DNA of 64,000 nucleotides from an uncultured Hormoscilla sp. GTDB lineage: Bacteria; Cyanobacteriota; Cyanobacteriia; Cyanobacteriales; Desertifilaceae. The stretch spans positions 2,016,001 through 2,080,000 of the forward strand of contig OZ001293.3 of assembly GCA_963921275.4 (NCBI GenBank), given 5' to 3'. Both the position numbers and the translations under genes were made by a program. The notes below the pieces were generated by a model. It was given only the letters and a program-made list of their open reading frames with translations, was not told the DNA's origin and did not search any database. Shown piece after piece: positions 28,981 through 36,966 of this stretch; position 1 is the first letter of the stretch; each line of letters begins with the position of its first letter.

Positions 28981-29851
28981 GGTGTGTCATCAATCAAATT
29001 GCTTGACAGAAGTAGATGGATACGGTATGGAGTCCTTATCCAGCAATAACAATCAAGAGGGCATGATATGAGACGCTATGGCTTGCGAGACGACCAGTGG
29101 GAACGGATCGAACACCTTTTACCTGGTAAAGAGGGTGACCCAGGCGCTACAGCCAAGAACAATAGATTATTCGTGTTCTGCCGTGTTATATCGATATCGT
29201 GCTGGCATTCCCTGGCGGGATTTACCGGAGTGTTTTGGGGATTTTCGGGTTGTTCATACCCGCCATACCCGTTGGTCTGAAAAGGGAGTTTGGAAGCAGG
29301 TATTCGATGTCTTGGCCTCAGACGCCGATAACGAATACGCCGCGATTGATGCCACCATCCTGCGTGCCCATCAACGAGCGTGCGGGTGCAAAAAAAAACA
29401 CCCTCAGATACGTGCGAAACCCAAGCCATAGGCCGTAGTAAAGGGGGACTATCGACAAAGATTCATGCCACTTGCGATTGCCCAAGGCAATCCCACAGGA
29501 TTTCATCTTACCCCTGGCCAAGCCCACGACGGGAAAGGCGCTGACGTGCTATTGGATAAAATCGGTGAGATTGGCGCGCTGCTTGCAGATAAAGCCTATG
29601 ATGCGGAACAACGTGTGCTCGAGCGCCTGAAAGAGGCGGATTGGATGGCTGTCATTCCTCCAAAAAGTAACCGCACAGAACACAGAGAATACGATGAAGA
29701 AATGTACAAGTGGCGGCATCTAATTGAAAATCTATTCCAAAAACTCAAGCAATACAGGGCTCTGGCGACACGCTACGATAAAACCGCTCGCAATTTCTTG
29801 GGTGCCATCTACCTCGCGGCAGCTGTAATATGGCTTAATTGATGACACGCC
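28981..29851 (+). mobile_element. IS5-family (IS427-like) element; transposase split, with an extra frameshift
   Basis: IRs GGTGTGTCATCAAT / ATTGATGACACGCC flanked by [20 protein letters not shown]9 run at ~29390, ADKAYD, IENLFQKLKQYRALATRYDK. Confidence 0.9.
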
Positions 29852-29987: not shown

Positions 29988-30233
29988 ATGTTACATTTAA
30001 GGGATGCTTCTGTTCTACATTCCCAGGGTATTGCCGCGCTTGTACTGTAAATAGGCAGCGACAAACAGTCCAGCGAGGGTGACTGGGATTAGGCCCAGCA
30101 CTATGCCTGAAATTAGCGGTTCAACCATCTTCAGTCTCCCAATTCTTGCAGTTGTGGGCTGTCAGTTGTCAGTTGTCGGTGTCGGTTGTCAGTTGTCGGT
30201 TGTCCACTAACCACTAACCACTAACCACTGATT

Positions 30234-31478
30234 CTACTGCTTTAGCAACAAGTAGTATAGCTCCCCGGTGGAATTCATCAATCCCGCCCGATCGCCCGCT
30301 TCTGCACCGGTGCCCATAAAGATATCAACTCGTCCCGCACCTTTAATAGCGCTGCCAGTATCCTGATCCAGTACGTAGCGGCTGACGGAGCGAAACTCCA
30401 GTTCGCCCCTAGTATTAGCATAGGGGATCTGGGTGTGAATCAGGGCTAATGCCCCTGGTGGCATGAGAGATTTATCCGTAGCAATGGAACGTTCTGCTGT
30501 CACGGGGAAACCTAAACTACCGGTAGCGGGAGTGCCATCGGTTTCCTGAAAGAAGATAAAGCTGCGGTTCCGGGGTAAATAGCGATTCATGGCCTGGGGT
30601 GAAGCGCGGAAATAGGAAATCAGCGCTGGCAGATTAATATCCTCTAGGCGCATGATGCCATCTCTGTATATTTCTCCGCCGACGCTAGTATAAGGCCAAT
30701 CGGTCTTACCCGCATAGCCTACAGTCATCACGCTGCCGTCTGTCAGTTGCAACCGGGCCGAACCTTGCACGTGAACTAAAAAGGCTTCAAAGCGATCGCG
30801 CAACCAGACCAATTCTAATCCCCGCAAGGGACTTTCTTCTCCCAATAGACCATCGGCACCTTCTAACTCCCGCCTGGTAGGATGAGGACGAGACCAATTT
30901 GCAAAGTCCGGAGGCAGTCGGTAGAGGGGATAGGGATATTCGGCCGTTGGCCTGGCGCTGGCAGCATAGATAGGTTCAAAGTATCCAGTAAAGGCAACGG
31001 TGCCTTCACCATCTTCGCCTACGGATTTGTACAGGACGAATTCCCGCTGCACTGCTGCTTGTAGTTCTGTTGGGGTCTGGGATGATAGCAGCAGCACGCG
31101 AAAACGTTCCAAAGAATGCATCACCCGATCGCGCGTTATTCCTGCTACTGGATATTGGCGATAAGCTGCTGCTGAACTTGGGGTCTGTAAATATTCCAGA
31201 CTGCGGTCGATCGCCTCTAAGAGGGCCTCTTTATCAACTAGCTGACTGCCCCACCGGCATCTTCCACGTGCTCTTGTCCTGAAGGACACGGCTGGCGCCG
31301 CGCTGCCGCGAACGGCACGTTCCAGACACCGCCCCCAAATTCGCTCGTCCCAACCCAGCTTGTCACCGGTAACTGACTGGTCTGGACCGATCGGGCGCAA
31401 GGGCACGGTCATGCCGATACCGGGTATCGATAGGGCCATTGATAAAGTCAGACCAAGGCAAGCTAATGTTTTTTTCAT
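30234..31478 (-). CDS. mltA: Membrane-bound lytic murein transglycosylase A, with an in-frame repeat-derived insert
   Basis: FTGYFEP, VQGS, QDTGSAIKGAGRVDIFMG. Confidence 0.92.
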   Translation of the reverse strand: MKKTLACLGLTLSMALSIPGIGMTVPLRPIGPDQSVTGDKLGWDERIWGRCLERAVRGSAAPAVSFRTRARGRCRWGSQLVDKEALLEAIDRSLEYLQTPSSAAAYRQYPVAGITRDRVMHSLERFRVLLLSSQTPTELQAAVQREFVLYKSVGEDGEGTVAFTGYFEPIYAASARPTAEYPYPLYRLPPDFANWSRPHPTRRELEGADGLLGEESPLRGLELVWLRDRFEAFLVHVQGSARLQLTDGSVMTVGYAGKTDWPYTSVGGEIYRDGIMRLEDINLPALISYFRASPQAMNRYLPRNRSFIFFQETDGTPATGSLGFPVTAERSIATDKSLMPPGALALIHTQIPYANTRGELEFRSVSRYVLDQDTGSAIKGAGRVDIFMGTGAEAGDRAGLMNSTGELYYLLLKQ

Positions 31479-31544
31479 CTCACCAGTTATTCTCAGCTAG
31501 AGTTCGACAGCCAGAGTTCGACGCCACAAGTAAACACCAGTTCC

Positions 31545-31805
31545 TTATTCCATTGGCGTGCGGTCAATACTGGAGGTGTACACTGGTTCTACCCGAATTG
31601 CTAGGATGCTGCGAAGACGCACCACCATATACTCACCCTGGGAAATTTTCATCGGTACATTAATGAAGCCACCGTCATCTGCTTTCGACACGACATCGCT
31701 AGCGTACCATTTTTGAAACTCTTTAATCATCAGGAAACGCACTGTCTCCCGGTGACCGCCCTCGATCAATAGGTGTACGGCAAATTCATCAGGGGTTCTT
31801 GGCAT
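31545..31805 (-). CDS. Conserved cyanobacterial hypothetical protein
   Basis: 86-aa ORF co-oriented with its neighbours; protein-like composition. Confidence 0.7.
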   Translation of the reverse strand: MPRTPDEFAVHLLIEGGHRETVRFLMIKEFQKWYASDVVSKADDGGFINVPMKISQGEYMVVRLRSILAIRVEPVYTSSIDRTPME

Positions 31806-31892
31806 AGTCTTCTCTCAAAGCACCGACATCATTATGGGATGCTTGCAGTTGCAAATCATTCTGTGTTCCTACCGAAATGATATTCTACTCGA

Positions 31893-32663
31893 TTAGGAAA
31901 GCAAATTGAACCGCAACAACAGTGTTTCGATCGTCTGGGGCAGCATCTGCTGTAGTTCTTGCCTATTTTTGTATAATAGGCGATTCTGACCGGGCAAGTC
32001 AAAGGGAAACTGTCCGGGCATGTCCTCTCGTTCTTGCTGTACCAGCAATATCTGTTCCCATCGCTTGCTCTTGAGAGCATAACCCATTTCTACACATACA
32101 TTCGGACTGGGTATCAGCTGCTGGCCCCTTTCCCGGGCCACCTGGGCGATCGCGGTCCCATCTGCCACAAACAGCAAACTCTTGCGGATCCGTCCCATCA
32201 GTTTGCTTTTTAATCTAATGGGTGCGTTGCTGGGGCGATGGGATCCTTCCACCGCGATCGTCAGGCGCGATCGTCTATTAATATTGGAGACCACCCGATC
32301 CAGTTCTTCCGAGATGGCTTCACTTGAGGTCGGGTACTCCGTCTGATAGCATAGGAATATTATCGGATCCAAATGGCCCATCACCTCTTGCTTCGCGAAA
32401 TATATCTCGTGACTGGTCAGGTCTATATTGGAGATTGCGTACCCACCACTGCCTTCAATATAAAATTCTACGACATCTCCTTCCAGATAGCGCCCAAACC
32501 ACTCTGAGTTTCTCACTTCTTCGCTATCTTCCAAGAAATCTGCTCGCAGAGCAGATTTTAGCAGACTATTTTTACTCAAGCGGATATCTGGAGGACGCTT
32601 AATCAGCTCTCTTATCGGTTCGTACTCCTGAAGATACCATGCTTTCAGAGCAATTATCGCCAT
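31893..32663 (-). CDS. Conserved cyanobacterial hypothetical protein (C-terminal SPNVCVEMGYA, TIR/NDT-like fold)
   Basis: Start placed at MAIIALKAWY; the longer ORF call runs into the non-coding array. Confidence 0.75.
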   Translation of the reverse strand: MAIIALKAWYLQEYEPIRELIKRPPDIRLSKNSLLKSALRADFLEDSEEVRNSEWFGRYLEGDVVEFYIEGSGGYAISNIDLTSHEIYFAKQEVMGHLDPIIFLCYQTEYPTSSEAISEELDRVVSNINRRSRLTIAVEGSHRPSNAPIRLKSKLMGRIRKSLLFVADGTAIAQVARERGQQLIPSPNVCVEMGYALKSKRWEQILLVQQEREDMPGQFPFDLPGQNRLLYKNRQELQQMLPQTIETLLLRFNLLS

Positions 32664-32690
32664 AATTCTTTTTCGCTGCTTCCCGTATTT

Positions 32691-33030
32691 AAACCACAAC
32701 AGCACCCGGTTCGCCCGACCGAGTGACTTCCTCCCTTGTTTGAGTCTATCTGGAGTTGAACTTATTCTACCATTTCTATCGCCCGTTTGGGCTATTGCGG
32801 TAGTGTTCAAAGCTCCCAACTCTCTATATTGAGGAAGTTTCCGCCTTTTGCTTGGGTGCTGTTGTGGTTTGACGAGACAGATCTAACTTAAACAGCTTTT
32901 TTCCTCTTTTCTCTCAACGTGGACTTGGCTGCTTATCTGCCAGGGAAGCTAATGCTTCATGTTTCCACCTTAAACGCTTCTGGGTTCAGATGCCAACCCC
33001 TTGTAACAATTCTTTACATTTCCCGACCTT
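32691..33030 (-). ncRNA. Structured ncRNA unit 1 (possible PsrR1/SyR1-like)
   Basis: 17-bp perfect inverted repeat 32691-32707/32854-32870 enclosing nested stems; own promoter-like region; strand inferred. Confidence 0.55.
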
Positions 33031-33342
33031 AAACACACAACAGCACCCGGTTCGCCCGACCGATTGACCTCCTCTCTACCGGTGTTTTTAGCTGGAGTTG
33101 CACTGATAACTCAGTTCCCTTGCTCCCACCTCTTTACTATGAGGAAGTTTCCGCCTTTTGCTTGGGTGCTGTTGTGGTTTGACGAGACAGATTTAACTTA
33201 AACAGCTTTTTTTCCTCTTTTCTCTCAACGTGGACTTGGCTGCTTATCTGCCAGGGAAGCTAATGCTTCATGTTTCTACCTTAAACGCTTCTGGGTTCGG
33301 ATGCCAACCCCTTGTAACAATTCTTTACATTTTTCCGATTGT
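33031..33342 (-). ncRNA. Structured ncRNA unit 2
   Basis: Arms 33036-33048/33164-33176; 33140-33331 is nearly identical to 32830-33020, while the loops diverge. Confidence 0.55.
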
Positions 33343-33650
33343 AAAACACAACAGCACCCGGTTTGCCGTGCCGAGTGCTTCCTCTCTAGTGCAATTATCT
33401 CTGGAGATTAACTGACCGACTCACTTTACAGCAGTCAGTTGCAGTTGTCGAGCTGCCCTACTCTACTTGAGGCCATCACTAGGCCCCGCTTGGGTGCTGT
33501 TGGTAGAGACAGATTTTAAGTTAAACAGCCTTTGACATTAACGGTTCTACTGTTACATCTGCCCAGGAAGCTGAAACTGCTTCCTTTTCCCAGTATGGAC
33601 ACTCGATCGCTTGGGGAGCTAGAGATTAAACTAAACTTTACATTTGTTTG
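33343..33650 (-). ncRNA. Structured ncRNA unit 3 (most divergent)
   Basis: Arms 33349-33359/33492-33502; same order of conserved blocks. Confidence 0.5.
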
Positions 33651-33663
33651 ACTGACTTCACGA

Positions 33664-34053
33664 TTAGCAATAGGCTGTTACATCCTCCCCGCATTCATCC
33701 GCCAGATAGCACAGGGCCCGGAAGCGCAGGCCAACCACTTCGTTATAGAGGGGGTTGAGCTTGCACAGGGGCGGAACGTGAAACAGGGTGCGGCCAAAGA
33801 GTTTAATGTCGCGCTCAAAGGGACATTGGGTGGGAATGAACTGGCAGATATAATGGGCCAATTGGGGATTTCTCACTTCTATGCGATCGAGCCATTGCCG
33901 TAGGGGACGCAGCAGATCGAAGGAAGTCTGCTGTTGCCAGTGGGTGGGTGACAGGCTGTATGAAACCTGTTTGCGCAGCCATAACCAACTGGTAAGGGCA
34001 AGATTTTGCATGGTATAATGACAAACACTCATCTTTTTTTTCTTCGTCTCCAT
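33664..34053 (-). CDS. Mo-dependent nitrogenase C-terminal domain (Mo-nitro_C) protein
   Basis: LRPLRQWLD...ICQFIPTQCPFERD...PPLCKLNPLY...LRFRALCYLADECGEDVTAYC. Confidence 0.9.
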   Translation of the reverse strand: METKKKKMSVCHYTMQNLALTSWLWLRKQVSYSLSPTHWQQQTSFDLLRPLRQWLDRIEVRNPQLAHYICQFIPTQCPFERDIKLFGRTLFHVPPLCKLNPLYNEVVGLRFRALCYLADECGEDVTAYC

Positions 34054-34438
34054 TAGGTGCTACTGAGGTAAGACCTGCTATCACATGTAGCAATTTTTTA
34101 CCTTATGCACCCTGAATGTTGGCTGAGTCACACCTCTTTGGTGAACTCATATTTATATTCTGGCTCGGTTAGCTCTGTTTTGAGATGAGAGATCTCACTG
34201 GATTTATGTGCGTGTAGTTCGTTATTATCGTGATGCAATTATGACGTAAGTATGATTTCCCTCACAGTCAAGAGTTCGACCTAAGACTGACTTTACGGCT
34301 TCCCAGGCGCGAAGCTTCGTAGTAAGCACGAAGAGTCTCCGCACGAAACTCAACCGGTGCATCTTATTCTTGGCAGAAGGATGAACGAGAAGCGAGAAAA
34401 TATGATAAAATCGAGCAGAGGTAAGAGAGGAGAAAAAC

Positions 34439-35911
34439 ATGACAGAAAAGAAAAAGGAACTGACAACCAGTTTCGGAATTCCGGTGAGTGACAACCAGAA
34501 TTCTCTGACAGCGGGAAGTCAAGGTCCGATCTTGATGCAAGACTTCCAGCTAATTGAGAAACTGGCTCATTTTAACCGCGAACGCATTCCGGAACGAGTA
34601 GTACATGCGAAGGGTGCGGGGGCCCATGGTTACTTTGAACTAACAGCAGATGTCACCCAATGGACAAAGGCAAAGTTCTTAGATAAGGTGGAAAAACGGA
34701 CGCCAGTGTTCCTGCGTTTCTCGACTGTGGGGGGAGAAAAAGGTTCGGCGGATACGGCCCGGGATCCGCGCTGGTTTGCGGTCAAGTTCTACACGGAGGC
34801 AGGAAATTATGATATCGTCGGGAATAATACGCCGACTTTTTTTATTCGCGACCCGCAGAAGTTCCCGGACTTGATTCACAGTCAAAAACGCAATCCTCAA
34901 ACCAATTGCAAGGATCCTAATGCGGTTTGGGACTTCTTTTCTCTCTCTCCAGAATCACTCCATCAGGTTACCATTTTGTATTCAGACCGGGGTACTCCTA
35001 AGTCCTATCGCCACATGAATGGCTATGGTAGCCATACTTTTAAGTGGATTAATGCTGAGGGGAAGGCGGTTTGGGTTAAGTATCATTTTAAGACTGACCA
35101 GTCCATTGCTAACTTTACTCGGGAAGAAGCAACCCAGATGGCAGGAGTTGATGCTGACTACGCTACGCGAGACCTGTTTGAGGCGATCGCCAATCAGAAC
35201 TACCCCAGTTGGACTGTGAAAGTGCAGATCATGCCTTTAGAAGATGCGGCGACTTACCGCTTCGATCCCTTCGACTTGACGAAGGTCTGGCCCCATAAGG
35301 ACTATCCGATGATTGTGATCGGGAACCTGGTGCTCGATCGCAACCCGGAAAATTACTTTGCGGAAGTAGAACAAGCAGCATTTTCTCCCTCTAACGTAGT
35401 GCCGGGAATCAGCTTTTCTCCAGATAAAATGCTGCAAGGGCGTTTGTTTGCCTATCCGGATGCTCATCGTTACCGTCTGGGTGCAAACTATGCTAACCTG
35501 CCAATCAACTGTCCCCATGCGACTAAGGCGATGAACTATCAGCGGGATGGGGCGATGCGCTTTGATGATAATGGCGGTGCTAGTGTTAACTACGAACCGA
35601 ATAGTTTTGGCGGTCCCACGGAATCACCGGAGTATAAAGAACCCGCTTTTGAGGTTTCGGAGATGGCCGATCGGACCGCATTTGAGCGCAGTGATGACGA
35701 CTTTGTCCAGGCGGGGGAACTTTATCGGATCCTGAGTGCAGAGGAGAAAGCGCGTCTGGTGGATAATATTGTCGATAGCATGAAACCTGTAAAGCGAGAG
35801 ATTCAGTTGCGGCAAATTCCCCATTTCTACAAAGCCGATCCAGATTATGGTACTCGTGTAGCAGAGGGTTTGGGTATTGAGATCAAAGAAGTGCTCAAAT
35901 CAATGAATTGA
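34439..35911 (+). CDS. katA: Monofunctional small-subunit heme catalase
   Basis: [24 protein letters not shown], heme ligand RLFAYPDAH. Confidence 0.93.
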
Positions 35912-36000
35912 TTCGCATCCCTCACCCTAAAGGGTGGGGCTACCCAAACGAAGCCCGCCTGCGCGGGCTTCAAGCCGCACTTTGTCAGGTGCCTAATAAC

Positions 36001-36357
36001 TTATAAATAGGTAACGTTTTTGTTTTTATCAATTTGTATATGTTTTAAACGCTGAAGTTCTGAGACTATTTTTTCCTTCTCTGAATCAGAAATACCGCCT
36101 TGAAACTGGAACATTGAATTTATTGAGTTTAACAGAGAGCGCATCTTACTCGCTTTTAGTTTTTTGAGCCTTTTAATAACATATTGAATTGTTTCCGCAC
36201 TATTTTTGTCAAAATGTTGTTGACTGTTTTCAAGCTGTTTTTGAGGATTTTGATTTTCTTCTTCCTTCCTGGCAAGCTGTATCAACAACTGTGCCAAACG
36301 CAACTTATCCCTATATCCGAGCTGCTCGCATAATTCAGCTATCCGATCGTAAGTCAT
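36001..36357 (-). CDS. Hypothetical protein (AT-rich)
   Basis: 118-aa ORF with a GGAGGAG RBS. Confidence 0.7.
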   Translation of the reverse strand: MTYDRIAELCEQLGYRDKLRLAQLLIQLARKEEENQNPQKQLENSQQHFDKNSAETIQYVIKRLKKLKASKMRSLLNSINSMFQFQGGISDSEKEKIVSELQRLKHIQIDKNKNVTYL

Positions 36358-36966
36358 GACATCTCCTCCATTGTTAACTTACTTAACTACGTTGCGGTGT
36401 CTCCTGGGAGACACCGCCTCAGGCTCGCATCTTCCGTAGGAGCACGTGTATTTTTTTGTAGCTTGTGGGCTGAGAGCCTTGCCTCGTCATAAATTTCAGC
36501 TTGTATGTTGCACCCCCCTGCTATTATACATGAAATTCAGCAGCTTGAGTTGGAAATTTCAGCAAAAATGAGATGCAGTCGTCAATCTTGAGCAAAAAAT
36601 TGTTTCATTCCGCTTCCTTACTCGCGTTGCTGGGCGTGACAGGACATATGTGCCACCGCTGGTTGGGGAGGCGAGAGGACCTCGGTTGTAAAACTGCTCC
36701 ATTGTTCATGGCCTTAGTTCTATCATGAGGGATATCCTGCCTGGTGGACATGAGGCGTGACAGCTACTCAAACCCTGATTTGGAGTCAGCAACAAAATGC
36801 CTCAAACCCTCATGATTGCGTTCTTGAGAACCCCAACTCCGAACTAGGGAACTCCGAACTGGTGAACGGGTGTAGTCAAAACCCGTTGATAAAAATATTG
36901 ATCCCCCAGCCCTCAGATTTTGACCACGGTGAACTCACGTTGGTGGGCGGTGCTGGATGCCATTTT

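Follow-up and report, generated by a model that had tools for sequence, protein, structure and literature searches.

Several described RNAs share features with the locus analysed here. Leader-peptide attenuators and infC-type non-AUG sensors show that translating a short frame can change RNA structure, and that a weak start can report initiation stringency. 6S RNA forms a long rod with a central bubble and is abundant at low growth, and IS110 bridge RNAs and TIGR guide arrays carry bipartite internal loops in repeated units. The closest match is PmgR1 (Ncr0700, DsiR1) of Synechocystis, reportedly the subject of a 2016 study by de Porcellinis. Published accounts present PmgR1 as an sRNA that regulates photomixotrophy (PMC8682795, PMC6693541). 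A role in glycogen control is likewise attributed to it. Photomixotrophic growth requires the RNA, whose targets and mechanism are stated to be unknown (PMC8682795); the accessible portions of PMC11622646, PMC8136920 and PMC7125299 hold nothing further on its mechanism. Its start site is the strongest in Synechocystis, with over 11 million reads in darkness (PMC4195498, PMC5386190), and the RNA moves opposite to PsrR1 (log2 -4.1 versus +3.7; PMC12850537). PsrR1, also called SyR1, is likewise cyanobacterial and light-regulated through RpaB, according to the main text of PMC6525291, and is listed in Rfam as RF02701 in the accessible part of PMC12873609. Unlike PmgR1, it is 131 nt long, high-light-induced and unrelated in sequence, with an HLR1 over its start site.

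The window, a 64,000-nt stretch from an uncultured Hormoscilla sp., carries three tandem units on its minus strand. The initial annotation had taken each of these for the gene of a structured RNA behind a promoter-like region of its own, and this was borne out: the units are real, with every named helix and loop strand present. Repeat families recur at 310-342 nt spacing across the three units, and a search with the family profile found these three copies only in the 7.03 Mb genome. The RNA is predicted to fold into a near-invariant 5' domain (helices P1-P3) and a long 3' rod (P4-P7), with a Shine-Dalgarno (SD) word in loop L3. The units and their neighbours are as follows, with numbering as in the initial annotation (unit 1 having the lowest coordinates) and 5' ends inferred from the published Ncr0700 start:

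31893..32663, minus strand: conserved hypothetical gene of 256 aa that begins 28 nt beyond unit 1; no other gene neighbours the RNA as often
32691..32960, minus strand: unit 1, a PmgR1 copy with a longer inner hairpin (210 bits against the family profile)
32734..32830, minus strand: central bubble and inner hairpin of unit 1, the "variable loop" of the initial annotation (bubble strands 32830-32818 and 32751-32734)
33031..33271, minus strand: unit 2, a PmgR1 copy with P1, P2, P3, SD loop and P4-P7 (221 bits against the family profile)
33075..33140, minus strand: central bubble and inner hairpin of unit 2 (bubble strands 33140-33128 and 33093-33075)
33343..33585, minus strand: unit 3, a divergent PmgR1 copy with the SD loop lost and P5 weakened (113 bits against the family profile)
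33385..33468, minus strand: central bubble and inner hairpin of unit 3 (bubble strands 33468-33459 and 33402-33385)
33664..34032, minus strand: Mo-nitro_C gene (PF06967, E 3.7e-45), a neighbour rather than a conserved partner

Judged by their sequence, the window units are copies of PmgR1/Ncr0700, an RNA abundant in Synechocystis in the dark, arranged in tandem. The ncr0700/DsiR1 sequences of two Synechocystis strains, as given in the supplement of PMC6596454, carry all scaffold motifs in the same order by eye, and share with the window units a similar length, the SD loop and the CUG described below. A profile built from the three window units only matched the Synechocystis salina locus L331 (E 2.4e-9), as well as L332 (E 1.1e-9) and L330 (E 9.8e-10), with the other five of eight loci at E of 0.06 or above or without a score; L331 in turn matches the published ncr0700 by eye. 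The scaffold of about 245-295 nt is present full-length in the PmgR1 order, and we assign the units to PmgR1 on this basis. Compared with Synechocystis PmgR1, the RNA here occurs in three tandem copies with other neighbours and a strong HLR1-like site, whereas the Synechocystis-type site is weak. The published ncr0700 of the model strain 6803, as listed in that supplement, stops short of the 3' strand that closes the outer helix; both the 6714 sequence and L331 run through this strand; a transposase gene lies downstream of ncr0700 in 6803 (PMC5386190). The 6803 RNA may be truncated, or only its listing short.

The initial annotation had taken the units for paralogues of PsrR1. That they are paralogues of a known cyanobacterial sRNA stands, but the RNA is PmgR1/Ncr0700, and the published PsrR1 sequence, in the portion available, is unrelated by eye. 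The Rfam search proposed there gave no match inside the units (window positions 30000-36500, E<=5), and four homologous loci gave none in the RNA at E<=1. We therefore rejected PsrR1, for which RF02701 exists; 6S RNA, for which Rfam also has models, was rejected for want of a match as well.

The RNA also occurs in relatives of the host. BLAST found a unit in 36 of 61 related genomes, the host's own counted, and an exact 5' pattern found it in 56 of 301 genomes of the phylum, all in the window's class; these distribution counts are lower bounds, and two inspected matches look false. The same pattern had no match in viral contigs. The first collection pattern gave mostly chance matches, with 5 of its 56 loci cyanobacterial and from a single genus. 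Tandem arrays are ordinary for the family: among 160 distinct loci, 135 have one unit, 19 two, five three and one four, so that 25 carry at least two units or partial units (partial units counted, and all counts minima because flanks are short). At one locus (L129:2030-2531) a second SD, CUG and 3' domain directly follow the first unit without a P1 or promoter, and partial units akin to this fusion occur at L144:2501-2986 and L011:1438-2181.

Within the window array, units 1 and 2 share 95.7% identity over 211 nt. The initial annotation had read their loop differences as diversification of specificity. The bubbles do differ, but so does the whole inner hairpin (9 P7 columns and 9 L7 columns), so that the divergence is that of a 3' block and not a loop-specific change. 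Across 23 tandem paralogue pairs, the bubble strands show 0.32 and 0.29 differences per site, compared with 0.37 and 0.40 in two other loops and with 0.37 and 0.29 for the bubble strands in 590 cross-locus pairs. A same-genus array (L002) contains two identical copies. Overall, the array comprises three PmgR1/Ncr0700 paralogues from tandem duplication that have probably been partly homogenised, a history that the pattern of paralogue divergence fits. Two RNA runs of a single sample yielded contigs inside units 2 and 1 (33045-33212 and 32666-32820, respectively); they carry neither strand nor ends, may derive from library DNA and speak for presence only, with uncovered parts and depths carrying no meaning, and so at most hint at expression of the array in this organism.

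We next assessed the fold using homologues, reducing 334 loci to 164 distinct full-length units and then to 126 units at no more than 90% identity (mean 61%). The 3' helices of the family covary, as the initial annotation had asked of a genuine RNA. In a sequence-only alignment, one pair in P6 (A-U in 78 units, G-C in 48) and one in P4 beat every value of two tree-aware nulls, and the next four pairs by covariation score, in P4, P7 and an extension of P2, are compensatory too. In a set of 60 diverse sequences, pairing holds in 87.6% of cells, and two-sided changes occur at 34 of 55 pairs compared with 23.7 in shuffles, including 11 of 13 pairs in P4 and 7 of 8 in P5; the structure was derived from the same 60 sequences, which makes the slid control favourable, and the fourth P6 pair is out of register in this count. 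RNAalifold recovered P1, P2 and P4 only from the 60-sequence alignment. The 5' helices vary too little (P1 99%, P2 96%, P3 93% invariant) to gain support from covariation. Beyond a conserved pyrimidine 2x2 loop, P2 is extended by a C-G/U-A pair, and the L3 word is the only well-conserved long unpaired stretch (93%), the other loops holding 0.3-0.7 bits. P4 may be dispensable, since the published 6803 sequence, as listed, ends before its 3' strand.

Each unit is preceded by a promoter-like region with an HLR1-like direct repeat, scored against the HLR1 consensus:

32967..32996, minus strand: promoter-like -35/-10 of unit 1, read from the sequence
33003..33020, no strand assigned: HLR1-like direct repeat of unit 1, 1 mismatch, centred at about -51 from the inferred start
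33278..33307, minus strand: promoter-like -35/-10 of unit 2 (TTGGCA, 18 nt, TAAGGT), read from the sequence
33314..33331, no strand assigned: HLR1-like direct repeat of unit 2, 1 mismatch, centred at about -51 from the inferred start
33627..33644, no strand assigned: HLR1-like direct repeat of unit 3, 3 mismatches

Across the family, PmgR1 homologues share a -10-like consensus in their upstream regions; a sigma-70 and terminator scan, of little informative value here, did not call the promoter-like elements of units 1 and 2. HLR1-like repeats with up to four mismatches to the consensus lie upstream in 85 of 121 cases, compared with 36% in shuffles, and 55 of these repeats are centred 50-53 nt before P1; the match is poor in Synechocystis-type copies. 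HLR1 near -51 is a position associated with activation in low light in the main text of PMC6525291, which does not name ncr0700. Each window unit thus has an RpaB-type site in the low-light-activating position, and may be regulated accordingly; this site is the sole pointer here to expression in the dark or in low light. The PsrR1-type arrangement, with HLR1 overlapping the start site, is absent from the units.

A further shared feature lies in the 5' domain, where an SD word in loop L3 precedes a CUG and an open frame:

32903..32906, minus strand: SD word GAGG in loop L3 of unit 1
32824..32895, minus strand: CUG frame of unit 1, 23 codons long and ending in the 5' bubble strand; putatively translated
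33214..33217, minus strand: SD word GAGG in loop L3 of unit 2
33137..33205, minus strand: CUG frame of unit 2, 22 codons long and ending in the 5' bubble strand; putatively translated
33463..33528, minus strand: CUG frame of unit 3, open for 21 codons, with no SD word

Units 1 and 2 thus keep the site and unit 3 lacks the SD. The L3 variants GAGGT, AGGAG and AGGAGGT are sub-words of the complement of the 16S 3' end of the host's own genome. Across the family, an SD word stands ahead of a CUG in 123 of 126 homologues. CUG occupies the aligned columns in 125 of the 126, never AUG, and its P3 pairing partner CAG is present in 109 only. Two homologues have no aligned CUG (L262, L337); by eye, a UUG and an AUC, respectively, follow the SD there in a frame that the family uses.

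The frame that begins at the CUG is kept open. Among 122 analysable units (three without SD plus CUG and one without an anchor were left out), a stop falls in codons 3-16 of the CUG frame in two, compared with 78 and 54 for the other frames, and parsimony counts 2 stop events over these codons in the CUG frame against 85 and 78. In two homologues, the CUG frame stops after three codons (stop at codon 4). In frames that are not used, early stops mostly come no more than about 11 codons from the start. Between CUG and P2, the linker measures 12 (15 units), 13 (1), 14 (1), 15 (48), 16 (54), 18 (1) or 19 (2) nt and never 17, which shows that two frames are in use and that indels come mostly in threes. 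The two frame classes offer a reciprocal comparison: past P2 the used frame is free of stops for 10 codons in all 64 and all 57 units, whereas the identical frames in units that do not use them stop this early in 18 of 58 and 15 of 65. Stops of the CUG frame are clustered: in 117 of 122 units they lie in core columns 124-147, a stretch that reaches from the helix ahead of P5 into the 5' strand of the bubble.

Because one source pattern (120 loci) had demanded an SD-like word, we repeated the test on units held out and found with the 5' motif alone. Skipping 5 already known, this gave 38 new units, kin of the first set included, of which 32 could be anchored and six could not. All 32 anchored units have the SD, and none has a stop before codon 17 of the CUG frame, compared with 23 and 17 in the other frames; three of the 32 frames exceed 32 codons, so the upper length limit is loose. 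In the published 6803 and 6714 sequences, as given in the supplement, the CUG frames are open by eye for 31 and 30 codons, and the aligned frame of L331 has 31. The encoded peptide itself shows no selection and is not conserved: 31 sister pairs differ by 27 non-synonymous and 8 synonymous codon changes, and substitution rates at the three codon positions are 0.28, 0.31 and 0.31. Overall, these comparisons of aligned sequences show selection for the SD, the CUG and the open frame in this family. In the literature searched, which comprised papers other than the original PmgR1 description, we found no description of such a frame; it is a new mechanistic lead on a known RNA, one whose tandem arrays are common in the family.

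Several observations weigh against translation. Being T-poor, the P4 strand favours open frames to some extent on its own, and its composition explains part of the open frame. Shuffling the linker only leaves 58.2 of 72 frames open (maximum 67) compared with 70 of 72 observed, and among the 36 most diverse units the null maximum of 35 exceeds the 34 observed; a null based on per-position base frequencies expects 11.7 stops in 106 units, where 2 are seen. In units 1 and 2, the predicted fold leaves no base of the CUG unpaired. The main text of a Synechocystis Ribo-seq preprint (10.64898/2025.12.20.695498) names neither PmgR1 nor ncr0700, and its supplements may bear on the question. In the accessible part of PMC12475003, the gradient profile of PmgR1 has its maximum in fractions 8-9, close to RNase P RNA, and not in the last fractions with ribosomal proteins.

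Weighing these data, we consider it likely, from the selection on the frame, that ribosomes initiate at the CUG. Our best reading, to which we give an even chance, is that slow initiation there unzips the RNA and ties the fold or turnover of PmgR1 to translation. In this model, the SD word would be exposed in its loop and the CUG hidden inside helix P3, so that ribosomes would bind the loop and initiate inefficiently. They would translate about 17-31 codons, whose sequence would be irrelevant, crossing P2 on its 3' strand and P4 and P5 on their 5' strands to stop at P5 or the central bubble. The signal would be the act of translation and not the peptide: an unfolded RNA with altered processing, stability or binding. 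That passage through P3, P2, P4 and P5 is the functional event that couples fold or turnover to initiation is, in our estimate, as probable as its opposite. PmgR1 might then act in trans as a sensor of translation initiation, its folded form building up at low translation, for example in darkness, with extra copies mainly raising dosage. We propose more tentatively, and as less likely than not, that PmgR1 is a free-standing, very abundant ribosome-actuated RNA whose conserved SD-CUG frame would serve only to let ribosomes through; their passage would unzip the 3' domain and free a bound factor or trigger cleavage, and so report initiation capacity to carbon metabolism in trans. The literature searched contained no ribosome-actuated regulatory RNA of this kind. 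Leader attenuators and infC act in cis on a fixed gene, whereas the neighbour of PmgR1 varies, its frame has no conserved control codons and the RNA apparently accumulates as a discrete species. PmgR1 resembles 6S RNA in its long rod with a central bubble and its abundance at low growth, but its arm past the bubble is in some cases very short, and it carries an additional 5' domain with SD and CUG.

Very short minigenes are harmful via peptidyl-tRNA drop-off, and the frame might be open only to avoid such harm if PmgR1 were a decoy, an abundant RNA that holds 30S or 70S at a strong SD and weak CUG and damps translation in the dark. The pairing of an SD with CUG and never AUG, the early position of most stops in unused frames, and the strength of the start site with its dark reads in Synechocystis (PMC4195498, PMC5386190) all suit a decoy, which we nonetheless judge unlikely, as it leaves the conserved 3' rod and the clustering of stops unexplained and sits poorly with the peak in fractions 8-9 (PMC12475003, accessible part). 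It is quite unlikely that PmgR1 goes untranslated and binds a protein or ligand, with the SD-like loop and CUG as structural or recognition elements and the open frame a by-product of composition. The 93-99% invariance of P1-P3 would fit sequence-specific recognition, the C-G/U-A extension of P2 agrees with it, and the composition null accounts for part of the frame; against this stand the reciprocal test of used and unused frames, the linker length classes and the retention of CUG where its pairing partner is lost. We find a classical base-pairing sRNA, or a dual-function RNA with an acting peptide, highly improbable. The published description as an sRNA regulator (PMC8682795, PMC6693541) points that way, and RNase E processing could free a seed, but apart from the SD word no long unpaired stretch is well conserved, direct targets are not known, and two unrelated peptide frames with neutral substitution are in use.

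Two further alternatives turn on the neighbouring genes. If the RNA were a cis attenuator or actuaton, CUG-frame translation would block the closing helix and U-tract and let transcription enter the next gene. The 256-aa gene follows co-oriented in 42 loci, often within 22-125 nt (28 nt here), among 115 loci with at least 1 kb downstream, and is probably transcribed by read-through in the window; Ncr0700 is classed as an actuaton in strain 6803 (PMC5386190), and in silico a ribosome at about codon 14 removes P4. However, P4 re-forms in silico with the ribosome at the stop, inner array units have promoters of their own, the RNA is free-standing in strain 6714 (PMC5386190), and in 32 of 111 loci the gene that follows is convergent, which makes a strictly cis role unlikely; we regard the attenuator as very improbable. 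The initial annotation had also suggested guide RNAs with diversified bubbles for the Mo-nitro_C protein. The gene it had placed upstream of the array is indeed Mo-nitro_C, and among 114 loci with at least 1 kb of flank such a gene lies upstream in 8, always co-oriented and in several lineages, with tandem copies in 25 of 160 loci also in favour. The synteny check told otherwise: 106 of the 114 loci have no Mo-nitro_C within the flank examined, and two other Mo-nitro_C paralogues of this genome have no adjoining RNA copy. Moreover, the bubbles are not hypervariable (two copies in L002 being identical), the six window bubble strands have no match in their own genome beyond shuffled controls and the 5' pattern has none in viral contigs, so that the guide reading is largely refuted and we give it almost no credence. 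A programmable guide array was rejected more generally, with no conserved linked effector and no hypervariable segments with targets in the host's own genome. The contrast with IS110 bridge RNA and TIGR arrays is that loops here are not diversified and each unit has a promoter-like region, and no recombinase or nuclease is among the commonest neighbour clusters of the RNA.

A shared ribosome landing site with an unusual start codon suggests, from sequence comparison, that ribosomes read PmgR1, a "non-coding" RNA, and that this reading belongs to its function. With the SD-CUG open frame, three point mutations suffice for a direct test of the mechanism, and the frame predicts a footprint that existing Ribo-seq data could show. 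If the reading as a ribosome-actuated RNA holds, PmgR1 would have the place beside the ribosome that 6S RNA has beside RNA polymerase. More generally, an RNA filed as non-coding may hide a translated frame that searches for AUG starts or conserved peptides would miss.

The 256-aa protein is found in 50 of 61 relatives; with this query it was not found in some RNA-bearing genomes (G019, G021, G031, G057), and searches of Pfam and NCBIfam returned no family. Its structural model has a pLDDT of 83 (the single-sequence fold is poor), with a predicted flavodoxin-like fold at the C-terminus and weak resemblance to nucleotide N-glycosidases (MilB, DNPH1) and bacterial TIR-STING (E about 3e-4); an Atlas lead gives PF10137 at 0.87. 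Downstream of it in the window lie an 86-aa hypothetical gene (31545-31805, minus strand) and mltA (30234-31478, minus strand), whose homologues occur near the RNA in 22 and 11 loci, respectively. Short frames at 29068-29842 (plus strand) are presumably pieces of an IS5-type transposase. On the other side, a catalase gene (34439-35911, plus strand) is divergent from Mo-nitro_C. Beyond it, a GC-rich hairpin at 35950-35969, which matches Rfam CRISPR-DR28 below threshold and has 11 exact copies in the genome, is probably a dispersed REP-like repeat.
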